Source: an uncultured delta proteobacterium
GTDB taxonomy: Bacteria; Desulfobacterota; Binatia; Bin18
Direction: 5' to 3'
Assembly: GCA_963733195.1 (NCBI GenBank)
Contig: CAVTCR010000050.1
Span: forward strand, 64,001-128,000
DNA: 64,000 nt
This document shows positions 41,180-42,790 of the stretch, piece by piece; positions within the stretch are counted from its first letter, which is position 1, and every line of letters starts with the position of its first letter. Below the pieces are notes generated by a model. It saw only the letters and a program-made list of their open reading frames with translations. It searched no databases and had not been told where the DNA came from. The position numbers and the translations under genes were made by a program.

Positions 41180-42790
41180 ATGCCTTCAGCCATGCGCCCA
41201 CGCAAACGCGCGAACTGGCCAGTTATCGTGTACCGCTACTGGGTAGACCCCGAGTACAACACCTGGGAGCGTCTCCCACGCGTCATCCAACAGGAAGCAG
41301 AGGCGATGCGGGCATTGTGGAATCAGCTGGTCACTGCCTTTGTCCAACGTCAAGCTACTTATCACAACACAGTCGCGGCTCTCCCTCCCACAGCGACAAT
41401 AGAAACTGGAGAGTGTTCCCCCTCTATAGCCAACACGACAGTGAAGCCTTCACCACTCGTGCTGCGCCAGTTGCAACAAACATTTCTCCAGACAACCCAG
41501 GAGGTGAGCAAAGCTTCTTCTGTCACTTGGGCGAACAAACAGTTCATTACTACACAATTTTTTGCCGCCCTCACACGATTTTTCAAGAAACAAGGCGACC
41601 CTCCACGGCAACGAACCGGAGAGTTTCGTGAGGTTCATTTTCAGCATCGCTTCACCGAGGGCGGACTGCCGATCGAGCGGATCTTTGGCCATAGTCAGCG
41701 ACTTTGCCTTACGTCCGTTGCCCCTGACGCCTTCTCTCCTGCCCTTTCTCAGCGACAACAAAAAAGATTGGCGCGCACAACTGGGGCTTTCCAAGTCAAT
41801 GGTTGTATTGTGAAATTTCACACGATTTTGCACCGCCCACTTCCATCAGGCGCGTATCTTAAAGTGGCTGCACTGATTGGCAAGCGCATTATCCAAGAAG
41901 GTTATCACTGGAACGGTGTTGGGGGGCAGCCGACGCCTGCGCGCTGGAACTGGTCGTTGCAGCTCACGCTGGAAGTGCCTCCTCAGCCACTCCCAACCCT
42001 GTTGCCCAAGGCAACGGCAGCACTACAAATTCGCTGTGAGTTGATCGATGAGCAACATGTGAGTTTCGCTATTTTGACAGATGCCACAGGACGTGAAGAG
42101 GCCTTTTTTCTCCCCGAAACATTGCTTACCTCTTGGCAGTACAAACGCAGACTGCAAAAGCAAGCCGATCAACTGCTGGAAGTCACCAAACAGCAATTAC
42201 AAGATCTACCACTAACGGGGCAATCGCCCAGCACTCAACAGCGATTCTCCCATCTCAGAGCGGCACGCGCCCCAGGGTTGTGGCGATTATTCCAGGTATT
42301 AGAACAAGAAGGCGCATCGGATGCAGCCATACAGCTCTTACGCCACTGGGCCAGTTGCTCAACCAAGTTGCTGCGTGAAGCGCGCGGATTGGAGCAGCGC
42401 TATCTCGGTCATCGCGATTGGTTTTATCACAACCTCGCGTTGCAGCTCTGCCATCGTTATCAACAACTTGTTGTCACGGTATCAGACATAACCGCAACAT
42501 CAGCCGAGCAAGACAGCAGAATCATTGCCGCTCCTCACGAGTCGCAAATTTATCGCCAACTTGCAGCCCCAGCTCGCTTTTTATCCTTTCTGCACCAAGC
42601 AGCAGACAAGACTGGCACGACAGTGAAAGAAGATTTGCGGATTGCAACACGTCGGACATTACCGGCAGCAAAGACCACTCGTTTCCAGACCCAGTTCAGC
42701 GGGGAAAAAGCTGAAACTATAGCCCAAAGTCTATCGAAAGTAGCCAGTAGTCAGGAGTCAGTAGAGAAGGAAGTAGTCAGTAGCCAGTAG
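41180..42790 (+). CDS. nuclease-dead, C-terminally truncated Cas12m-like (type V-M/TnpB lineage) RNA-guided DNA-binding protein
   Basis: Motifs collinear with Cas12m as recalled: VYRY, LWNQLV, TWAN, LHRPLPSGA, W.LQLT, LGHRDWFYHNLA, RQLAAP. RuvC-I and RuvC-II acidic residues are replaced (AALQIRC; LVVTVSD); Zn finger and RuvC-III are absent. Confidence 0.75.
   Translation: MPSAMRPRKRANWPVIVYRYWVDPEYNTWERLPRVIQQEAEAMRALWNQLVTAFVQRQATYHNTVAALPPTATIETGECSPSIANTTVKPSPLVLRQLQQTFLQTTQEVSKASSVTWANKQFITTQFFAALTRFFKKQGDPPRQRTGEFREVHFQHRFTEGGLPIERIFGHSQRLCLTSVAPDAFSPALSQRQQKRLARTTGAFQVNGCIVKFHTILHRPLPSGAYLKVAALIGKRIIQEGYHWNGVGGQPTPARWNWSLQLTLEVPPQPLPTLLPKATAALQIRCELIDEQHVSFAILTDATGREEAFFLPETLLTSWQYKRRLQKQADQLLEVTKQQLQDLPLTGQSPSTQQRFSHLRAARAPGLWRLFQVLEQEGASDAAIQLLRHWASCSTKLLREARGLEQRYLGHRDWFYHNLALQLCHRYQQLVVTVSDITATSAEQDSRIIAAPHESQIYRQLAAPARFLSFLHQAADKTGTTVKEDLRIATRRTLPAAKTTRFQTQFSGEKAETIAQSLSKVASSQESVEKEVVSSQ
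42681..42740 (+). CRISPR. single Cas12m-type repeat (42681-42717) plus guide, embedded in the 3' end of the dCas12m-like ORF
   Basis: GTTTCCAGACCCAGTTCAGCGGGGAAAAAGCTGAAAC (37 nt): TTCAGC/GCTGAA stem and CCC/GGG pseudoknot. Followed by TATAGCCCAAAG, the reverse complement of 30479-30490. Confidence 0.7.

Follow-up and report, generated by a model that had tools for sequence, protein, structure and literature searches.

The cas12m-like locus

A window of 64,000 nucleotides (nt) from an uncultured delta proteobacterium (Desulfobacterota; Binatia; contig CAVTCR010000050.1, positions 64,001 to 128,000) was analysed around an open reading frame (ORF) at 41180-42790, which encodes a protein related to the type V-M CRISPR effector Cas12m and reads at its 3' end through a single CRISPR repeat and a short guide. 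An earlier annotation of this DNA, here called the sequence-only reading, had described the product as an orphan, nuclease-dead and truncated Cas12m-like effector retained as a binding-only protein. From the results below we consider it likely that the protein is a domesticated Cas12m descendant which acts as an RNA-guided promoter repressor of a paralogous DUF1302 outer-membrane protein (OMP) gene, and not in immunity. The features of the gene and its 3' end are, in window positions:

41180-42790, plus strand: cas12m-like ORF of 536 amino acids (aa), frame intact
41192-42634, plus strand: coding core conserved in the family (residues 5-485), covering WED, REC and RuvC as far as the last beta strand, with a mean predicted local distance difference test (pLDDT) score of 84.5 in AlphaFold2
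42635-42790, plus strand: non-conserved C-terminal tail of the ORF, a read-through of non-coding DNA
42688-42717, plus strand: solitary CRISPR repeat GACCC...GCTGAAAC, single copy in the genome
42718-42731, plus strand: guide TATAGCCCAAAGTC, beginning at the position where the spacers of canonical arrays begin; its first 12 nt match the target

The true start of the ORF is probably the ATG at 41192, because the N-termini of the family open with MRxRKR. In an alignment with the homologues P0069 and P0074 the conserved sequence ended at ...AADKTGTTV (residues 474-482), and residues 486-536 proved to be the translated repeat, guide and following heptamer repeats (pLDDT 34-53). Three unrelated peptide patterns were seen in the tails of the 59 truncated homologues, ...QTQFSGEKAETI in seven, ...DPVQRGES in four and ...RPSSAGKKLK in nine, while the remaining 39 terminate before the repeat DNA. 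The three patterns are one DNA sequence translated in three frames.

Relationship to Cas12m

Profile searches with the window protein gave E=3.1e-28 for the PADLOC model Cas12u1, a former name of Cas12m, and 5.2e-25 for PADLOC Cas12f (residues 95-483). A solved structure entitled 'CRISPR-associated DNA-binding protein Cas12m' (23vw_A) was matched at 1e-11 by the single window sequence and at 4.5e-40 by the family profile, which also matched UnCas12m4a (23vu_A, 1.5e-20) and Cas12m2 (3.9e-7). The motif pairs listed in order in the sequence-only reading were reproduced by these alignments; window before Cas12m, they read vtWAnk~lyWAsf, LHRPLPsGA~lHReiPedA / HRPvPeGA, LGHRDwfYrnlA~LGHRDdlYrqiA and rqlaaP~rdhaaP. 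General collections were little informative: Pfam gave a single sub-threshold family (YecM, E 0.16), NCBIfam none and PHROGs two weak matches.

An AlphaFold2 model was built from 61 sequences. Its mean pLDDT of 84.5 falls low only at residues 1-7, 443-449 and in the tail (489-519), and it shows the bilobed WED-REC1-REC2-RuvC fold of Cas12m2 and GoCas12m. A Foldseek search of such a model had been suggested with the sequence-only reading as a check for unrelated folds. The first four ranks were all Cas12m2/GoCas12m structures (8hhl, 8hhm, 8hio and 8pm4; E 1.9e-18 to 2.5e-16), with dCas12f, TnpB and Cas12f structures below them (E at least 7e-9). With VIA-align, 422-453 residues were aligned to Cas12m structures at Z 17-19, against Z of at most 14.2 for TnpB/Cas12f and 12.5 for dCas12f. 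The best alignment (Z 19.0) placed model residues 12-495 onto Cas12m2 residues 1-550. It stops where the zinc finger of Cas12m2 begins (H549, C552, C569 and C572, with the RuvC-III residue D579 beyond; PMC10442227), so the TNB/RuvC-III part is missing. Judged by profile similarity and modelled fold, Cas12m is the nearest family to the window protein.

Loss of the catalytic residues and of the C-terminal domain

The RuvC-I position of the window protein is Q283 in 'AALQIRC', where 23vw ('AIDLG') and P0074 ('GLDLGW') have D, and the RuvC-II position is T433 in 'LVVTVSD'. Both columns were inspected in an alignment (A2) of 74 proteins minus 13 fragments (P0003, P0061-P0068 and P0070-P0073). Among its 59 truncated members the RuvC-I column held D12 R11 Q10 N7 H6 L3 V3 E2 G2 A1 M1 I1 and the RuvC-II column T22 K8 V8 I8 A5 S4 E2 D1 G1. 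The RuvC triads described for Cas12m are D-E-D, H-D-D or N-D-D (PMC11013384).

None of the 59 has a Cys-rich tail. Aligned with P0069 and P0074, the window protein lacks both the CxxC...CPxGH zinc finger and the D.D.N.GR motif of RuvC-III; a Cys/His-rich tail is kept in P0069 and P0074 and in the proteins of loci L011, L031 and L032. The truncated members are thus devoid of the TNB zinc finger domain within RuvC, and of the catalytic triad the first two positions read Q283 and T433, the segment with the RuvC-III Asp being gone. As far as can be read from the residues, both acid positions are unconstrained in the family and the protein is nuclease-dead, with its TNB domain lost. Here the sequence-only reading was borne out, both in calling the protein nuclease-dead from the same two positions and in calling it truncated by read-through into repeat and guide; the three-frame tails and the homology of the repeat to genuine arrays agree with the latter.

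A solitary repeat followed by a short guide

The full 30-nt repeat is GACCCAGTTCAGCGGGGAnAAAGCTGAAAC, and its 37-nt V-M-like equivalent covers 42681-42717. It is single-copy in the 6.9-Mb genome of the window at up to five mismatches, and no array adjoins the gene. With at most three mismatches the element was found in 21 of 32 fetched loci, among which L006 and L021 are identical in sequence and L012 and L013 nearly so; it lies 3' of the equivalent of residue 485 in 20 of the 25 loci that were long enough. Across the 21 loci the repeat is identical except for one loop position and one stem-flank mismatch in L023, with proteins 43-74% identical and synonymous sites saturated (proportion of synonymous differences, pS, 0.48-0.78).

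Two distant relatives that keep the zinc finger (L031 and L032, 27% identity) have true CRISPR arrays about 350 nt downstream, whose 37-nt repeats share AGACCC...CAG.GGGG...CTG.AAC with the solitary repeat. An alignment of six repeat sequences (A4) had 19 invariant columns and a 5-bp stem that was 96.7% paired, in which pair 17-35 occurs as UA, CG, AU and GC. Since the fold of repeat and guide alone was no more stable than that of shuffled sequences (z -0.1), the stem is supported by covariation and not by folding energy. By these comparisons the 30-nt element is a solitary V-M-type repeat with a 3' stem-loop and the spacer directly after it. A third relative, L011 (33% identity), has the zinc finger and yet already a single repeat.

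Within the family the first 14 nt or so of the guide are semi-conserved (TATAGC[CG][CAG]AAA.., and ATATAGTAAAATCC in one genus), followed by divergence. The module is not always at the 3' end of the gene. In L023 it lies in a divergent intergenic region upstream of an OMP to cas12m-like operon, and further modules were found directly behind DUF1302 genes unaccompanied by a cas12m-like gene, in L038 (contig C201 of genome G404) and in L079 and L083 (both G409). Conversely, cas12m-like genes of G408 and G409 have no repeat of their own. The orphan modules of G404 and G409 are presumably used in trans.

Contigs from three metatranscriptome libraries, belonging to three studies, match stretches of the coding sequence with 95-99% identity. 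One of these spans 42461-42713, from the coding region into the repeat, and another contig carries the repeat of a relative followed by a ATATAGTAAAATCC... guide. The runs contained small shares of the locus (at most 0.19). Uncovered parts carry no meaning, and the contigs are a weak hint of expression.

A defensive role was considered for this arrangement, as a minimal type V-M system in which the single spacer silences a mobile element. Canonical Cas12m is known to defend by binding without cutting (PMC11013384, PMC10442227) and the genome holds other CRISPR-Cas loci, with Cas1 genes on five other contigs. The locus has one repeat only, no cas1 is found on its 272-kb contig, its synteny is stable, and the guide, which different genera have kept, matches a promoter on the chromosome beside conserved host genes (see below). 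A defensive system is on these grounds very improbable.

Guide matches at DUF1302 promoter regions

The guide seed recurs in the window at the following place:

30479-30490, minus strand: predicted target, a 12-nt exact match to the guide seed, antisense of OMPa; 5' flank CCT at 30493-30491
30464-30492, plus strand: promoter-like element TTGCAC-N17-TATAAG after an A-tract, recognised by eye, 288 nt upstream of the OMPa ATG
30779-33032, plus strand: OMPa, DUF1302 outer-membrane protein gene and predicted regulated gene, in three frames in the assembly

The first 12 nt of the guide, TATAGCCCAAAG, are found antisense to OMPa, 288 nt before its ATG, and in L014 a guide match lies at the orthologous place. 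With the site begins a block of strong conservation between the window and L014. The sense strand here has the A-tract, TTGCAC, 17 nt and TATAAG; a paired guide would cover bases one to four of the -10-like hexamer together with 8 nt of the spacer. This layout recurs in genomes G406, G407 and G417 and in L014. Two other identities of the site were discarded: a degenerate second repeat module, as the preceding 30 nt are unlike the repeat, and a sigma-54 promoter, as the GG/GC spacing is absent by eye.

Separately, a stretch of about 150 nt lying between the promoter-like element and the OMPa start (about 30493-30640, plus strand) is highly conserved with L014, which the DNA preceding it is not. 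This block may be a structured leader; no Rfam family reached the gathering threshold in it.

The guide of each genome was then compared with the 450 nt upstream of its own DUF1302 genes, and P was obtained from shuffled guides:

window OMPa: 12/14, 12 contiguous, P=0.004
L014: 12/14, 12 contiguous, P=0.004
G401: 10 contiguous, P=0.04
G403: 10 contiguous, P=0.043
G404: 10 contiguous, P=0.003
G402: 11/14, P=0.04
G406: 12 contiguous, P=0.007
G407: 7 contiguous, 11/14, P=0.077
L022: 11/14, P=0.034

All positive sites are antisense over a TATA, in a TTGCAY-N15-17-TATA(A/T) layout behind an A-tract, and their flank is CCT, or CGT in one genus. Genera g1, g257 and g259 show such antisense matches over a -10-like TATA, and g262 shows them in weaker form, so a guide match to a host promoter region is conserved among relatives. 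Guides fit the sites of their own lineage better than those of others, with a mean of 10.3 contiguous seed matches for own pairs vs 4.9 for cross-lineage pairs. The paralogues that bear a site are those most like the window OMPa (64-76% identity, vs 56-60% for most regulator-linked paralogues) and have no adjacent regulator.

For G417, a 100%-complete genome of the window's genus, a further antisense 12-mer upstream of an OMPa-type gene was predicted beforehand. This genome has two repeat modules, with guides beginning TATAGCCCAAAA that differ from the window guide at position 12. G417 has three exact copies of the 12-mer of these guides, one in each module and one at C26:41500-41511. This last copy has the antisense orientation, in the context aaaaaaaCTTGCAC-N17-TATAAG, and 285 nt separate it from a downstream DUF1302 gene that has 76% identity to OMPa and follows a hydrolase gene. 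Where the window site has G, this one has A, which means that guide and site changed together at position 12.

Searches for longer or additional targets gave little. In its own genome the window guide had nothing meaningful at up to three mismatches in 16 nt, and no match at up to five in 20. In G401-G404, a 20-mer (at most three mismatches) and a 14-mer (at most one) recovered the repeat modules only, plus one chance-level match in coding sequence; in G405-G409 a consensus 14-mer matched at the level of the reversed-pattern control. Matches of the consensus 14-mer in L048 and L050 were dismissed as targets, being in conserved coding sequence and unlike the guides of those genomes. In cis, a seed match of at least 10 nt was present in no locus except the window and L014, and the upstream region of L088 matched only in sense orientation. 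The guide of G405 had a 13/14 antisense match across TATAAA, with a FadL-like gene about 125 nt downstream of it (L049, contig C630).

These searches bear on the view that the repeat RNA is bound while the 'guide' is a fossil, left from a former spacer and now without a target; the protein would then have another function, for example regulating its own mRNA or that of the OMP by way of the 3' hairpin. The many DUF1302 upstream regions with no match, the shortness of the matches and the outcome of the 14-mer and 20-mer searches in G401-G404 would fit this view. A fossil would, however, drift independently of the promoter, whereas guide and site co-vary across genera and, at position 12, between congeners; conservation also drops sharply after about 14 nt, as for a functional guide. 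We therefore think a fossil guide improbable.

Conservation, selection and distribution

A word-indexed search that covered proteins of 294-938 aa yielded 73 proteins, 72 of them at E of at most 2.8e-53 and mostly 440-540 aa long; the named ones are from Candidatus Binatia or from metagenome-assembled genomes (MAGs) of Deltaproteobacteria. About 70 homologues are intact and of consistent length (roughly 480-520 aa), with 20 invariant and many near-invariant residues. The ratio of nonsynonymous to synonymous substitution (dN/dS), which the sequence-only reading had named as a check on neutral decay, came to 0.043-0.201 for the seven pairs whose dS was finite, three more pairs being saturated. 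The truncated family is under strong purifying selection, which suits the claim of retention as a binding-only protein, with DNA binding as the presumed activity. The word orphan was apt as far as the missing array and the one repeat are concerned; the gene is no single orphan, though, but one of a family that is conserved and syntenic and has an identifiable target in the host.

A maximum-likelihood tree grouped the 27 truncated rows in one clade (98/98). Its sisters in succession were P0069, in which the zinc finger is kept, and L011 with its single repeat, and the array-bearing forms fell outside. From this order we infer a direction from array to single repeat to truncation, no more firmly than that because the root is a midpoint root only.

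Homologues were absent from 400 other genomes of the phylum (0/400). In a sample of 400 genomes of the class, 15 had one, namely 14 of the 54 in the taxonomic family of the window genome and one marginal match elsewhere. Genera of that family scored 4/4, 3/6 and 1/1 (four genera), with two weak matches in 8 and 0/28 in the largest genus. By this class-level search the gene family is confined to this taxonomic family. The MAG records of L003, L004 and L007 are titled Enterobacteriaceae or Klebsiella; as locus and neighbours are Binatia-like, these titles are probably mislabelled.

Gene neighbourhood and frameshifts in the assembly

The other features around the gene are:

38826-41061, plus strand: OMPb, DUF1302 paralogue directly upstream of the cas12m-like gene, in several frames in the assembly
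29199-30281, plus strand: alpha/beta-hydrolase gene before the target promoter, same arrangement in L014 and G417
35542-38379, minus strand: divergent regulator with winged helix Trans_reg_C and AAA_16 ATPase, also in L002, L005 and L012
41062-41172, no strand: inverted heptamer repeats CAGTAGA / CTACTGA, folding into a long hairpin (-43.6 kcal/mol, z -2.0) in the interval from OMPb to the cas12m-like gene

Of the 20 truncated-family loci with at least 700 nt of upstream flank, 17 have a DUF1302 gene as the next gene upstream, in the same orientation, the others being L007, L008 and L030; the domain was assigned on an intact OMPa orthologue. In the window, L002, L005 and L012 the OMP gene is preceded by the winged-helix/AAA_16 regulator, and in L023 by a sigma-54 activator instead. 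Downstream, the window has a GNAT-family gene, and convergent GNAT, MetE-like and bicupin genes follow in eight loci. No sigma factor was detected among the conserved neighbours (nine proteins scanned). OMPa itself lies 8-10 kb upstream of the cas12m-like gene, behind the alpha/beta-hydrolase gene.

Both OMP genes are split over several frames when compared with intact orthologues of 735-745 aa. The sequence-only reading had noted indels in two neighbouring OMP genes; this holds for the splitting, while only OMPb is a neighbour, the other being OMPa at the distance given above. Its argument that an intact ORF between decayed genes speaks for retention had to be given up, because the housekeeping genes guaB (three overlapping frames) and guaA (two) are split too (23096-26357, minus strand), and on contigs C51 and C73 two Cas1 genes are broken in this way. 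Assembly errors are the probable cause of these frameshifts, with indels throughout the assembly, and the splits in the OMP genes say nothing on decay of the locus.

A decaying pseudogene left by a lost CRISPR-Cas locus could explain the loss of the catalytic residues and of the C-terminal domain, and would fit the frameshifts in the OMP genes of this assembly. It is hardly credible given dN/dS values of 0.04-0.20, about 70 intact homologues and a confident AlphaFold2 model, and with guaA and guaB frameshifted as well the assembly gives no sign of local decay.

Some further elements were noted. Heptamer runs (CAGTAGC, CAGTAGT) at 42740-42811, 43150-43182 and 41062-41095 / 41154-41172 form inverted repeats, which enclose two fragments of the gene for a 23S-rRNA-intervening-sequence (four-helix-bundle) protein (42812-43150). 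The CAGTAGA / CTACTGA repeats are also present in L038, the same heptamers flank modules in L014-L016 and L038, and many unrelated metagenome contigs match them. Right after OMPa, a Tn5/IS4-type transposase gene (Tnp_DNA_bind and Dimer_Tnp_Tn5; 33156-34571, plus strand) lies in an island of 64% G+C and separates the hydrolase-OMPa unit from the unit of regulator, OMPb and cas12m-like gene. An ORF of 138 aa (34766-35182, minus strand) resembles by eye the DUF559 / very-short-patch-repair-endonuclease-like family. A c-di-GMP-I riboswitch aptamer at 53584-53675 (plus strand; 70.3 bits, gathering score 35) was the only Rfam match in the window at the gathering threshold.

Proposed mechanism

Ancestry, domain losses, solitary repeat, selection, synteny and guide-promoter co-variation were each established computationally. 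On this basis we propose that a CRISPR array has shrunk to one repeat and one fixed guide overlapping the 3' end of the gene. The protein would bind a repeat-guide RNA released by cleavage from the 3' end of its own mRNA. In the promoter of a DUF1302 paralogue, the 12-14-nt guide of this RNA would pair to the sense strand over the -10 TATA and the neighbouring part of the spacer, and the complex bound there would occlude RNA polymerase and so repress the OMPa-type gene. With the regulator encoded directly behind OMPb, which has its own activator, the outcome could be a switch between paralogous outer-membrane proteins; this logic is suggested by the position of the gene in the operon of another DUF1302 paralogue. 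In L014 the targeted promoter would drive the operon that contains the cas12m-like gene, giving negative feedback. Repression is proposed by analogy with TldR, with dCas12f and with Cas12m, which silences by binding DNA without cutting it (PMC11013384, PMC10442227).

The same promoter binding might instead lead to activation, or to the recruitment of another factor, as in dCas12f-sigmaE. There, a C-terminally truncated dCas12f with a guide of about 14 nt activates transcription upstream of operons for outer-membrane transporters (PMC13472631), and activator genes do occur in the present loci (AAA_16 / winged helix, and the sigma-54 activator of L023). A complex on this site, however, would hinder the polymerase, since it would sit over the -10-like TATA and spacer of a promoter-like element that is complete in other respects. 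No sigma factor was among the nine scanned proteins of conserved neighbours, and the adjacent regulators vary by locus, with no single conserved partner. Activation is for these reasons rather unlikely.

A number of results weigh against promoter repression as proposed here. The matches are short (5-13 contiguous nt), the weak ones being those of G402 and G407 with 5 and 7 contiguous nt, and in G409 there was one match on the sense strand. Sites within one genus are orthologous and not independent, which leaves about four independent lineages, and the grouping of the targeted paralogues as 'OMPa-type' was made after the matches had been seen. Thirteen other DUF1302 upstream regions were matched no better than by shuffled guides (window OMPb, L002a/L052, L002b/L061, L005/L087, L012, L010/L060, L053, L054, L059, L086 and L089; three of the 13 were tested twice). 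G623 and G687 held no further exact guide 12-mer beyond their own modules, and the best site of G405 fronts a FadL-like gene, identified by eye from its N-terminus, and not a DUF1302 gene. The window 12-mer has three copies in its genome where 0.83 are expected, the third being unexplained. A strict sigma-70 consensus scan made no call in 30250-30800; it misses the promoter-like element because TTGCAC scores 3/6 and TATAAG is without the final T. The flank CCT/CGT differs from the protospacer-adjacent motif (PAM) of studied Cas12m, which is TTN/YTN (PMC10442227; bioRxiv 2026.03.26.714355), although T- and C-rich PAMs are reported for the Cas12m family (PMC11013384). The hint of expression is weak because DNA may be the source of contigs in RNA libraries, and such contigs show neither RNA ends nor levels. 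RNA processing, DNA binding and repression as the direction of the effect are all inferred, and without its TNB domain the protein could handle R-loops less well.

The third 12-mer copy lies at about 31970 of contig C14 of the window genome (G000). It extends to 13/14 with flank CTG, in sense orientation, inside TTGCAG-N17-TATAGC and about 35 nt before a CoA-transferase-like ORF, and it may be a second target or due to chance.

With these points included, promoter repression remains the reading we favour. We also incline, by a little, to the fuller view that this is the third independent exaptation of a Cas12-lineage protein to a chromosomal RNA-guided transcription factor, from type V-M: a protein of about 480 aa without TNB and with one repeat, whose 12-14-nt guide would co-evolve with the -10/spacer region of a DUF1302 promoter and which, encoded in the operon of a paralogue, would switch outer-membrane proteins, the trans modules hinting at a small regulon.

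If this is correct, the change from RNA-guided nuclease to host transcription factor has also occurred in the naturally non-cutting V-M lineage, besides TnpB (TldR) and Cas12f. The relatives would then form a natural series, from array with zinc finger (L031, L032) over single repeat with zinc finger (L011) to loss of both zinc finger and RuvC-III. The way in which guide and promoter vary together between genera is a rare, directly testable instance of co-evolution of regulator and operator through base pairing. A natural Cas12m without TNB and with a guide of about 14 nt would be relevant to shrinking Cas12m for CRISPR interference and epigenome editing (bioRxiv 2026.03.26.714355), and it would offer a regulatory handle on DUF1302 proteins, the function of which is still debated (bioRxiv 10.1101/2020.07.04.188060).

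Comparison with known systems

With an inactivated RuvC, no array or transposon ends and a single guide encoded with the gene, apart from some modules of G404 and G409 that are encoded away from the protein gene, the truncated Cas12m family would belong to the known class of exapted nuclease-dead RNA-guided transcription factors. No description of the family itself was found in the full-text literature, the supplements of PMC10691335 and PMC13472631 aside. The main text of PMC10691335 names neither DUF1302 nor an outer-membrane association except in one cited title; it does present a scenario of array minimisation.

Cas12m (MmCas12m2, GoCas12m, PmCas12m, UnCas12m4a) is nearest in profile and fold and has a homologous repeat with the AGACCC...CAG.GGGG...CTG.AAC layout and stem, and like it the window protein is expected to bind DNA without cutting. 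The window family differs in size (about 480 conserved aa vs about 600), in the absence of the TNB zinc finger and of RuvC-III and in its unconstrained RuvC-I/II positions. Where Cas12m has an array, the window locus has one repeat and a fixed 12-14-nt guide that matches a host promoter flanked by CCT/CGT.

TldR proteins resemble the window protein as nuclease-dead RuvC proteins with a single short guide RNA that overlaps the 3' end of the gene and a target over a host promoter; the guide of oppF-TldR is 9 nt (bioRxiv 2026.09.22.753285). Those associated with fliC are likewise encoded beside a paralogue of the predicted repressed gene (bioRxiv 2023.11.30.569447; bioRxiv 2026.09.22.753285). Direct descent from TnpB with an omega-RNA scaffold was not seen here. 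The window protein comes from the CRISPR effector Cas12m and not from the transposon protein TnpB (Z 14 for TnpB structures vs 19), is larger with a REC2-type insertion, and its RNA is a CRISPR repeat like those of its nearest relatives.

The dCas12f-sigmaE system is also an exapted Cas12 with an array reduced to a single guide, in which a C-terminal truncation removes part of RuvC; its 13-14-nt guide matches lie upstream of outer-membrane transport genes (PMC13472631). The parent type is V-F there and V-M here, so the Cas12f ancestry is lacking, as is the operonic sigma-E partner: the window loci have no conserved neighbouring sigma gene (nine proteins scanned). The window site lies on the -10 element, which suggests repression, vs promoter-independent activation by dCas12f.

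Finally, crlRNA, scaRNA and tracr-L autoregulation share with the window locus a degenerate or solitary repeat and a short, partial guide to a host promoter (bioRxiv 2024.12.27.630466). These RNAs borrow a full, nuclease-competent immune effector, whereas the effector of the window appears to be dedicated, dead and truncated, with no array beside it.

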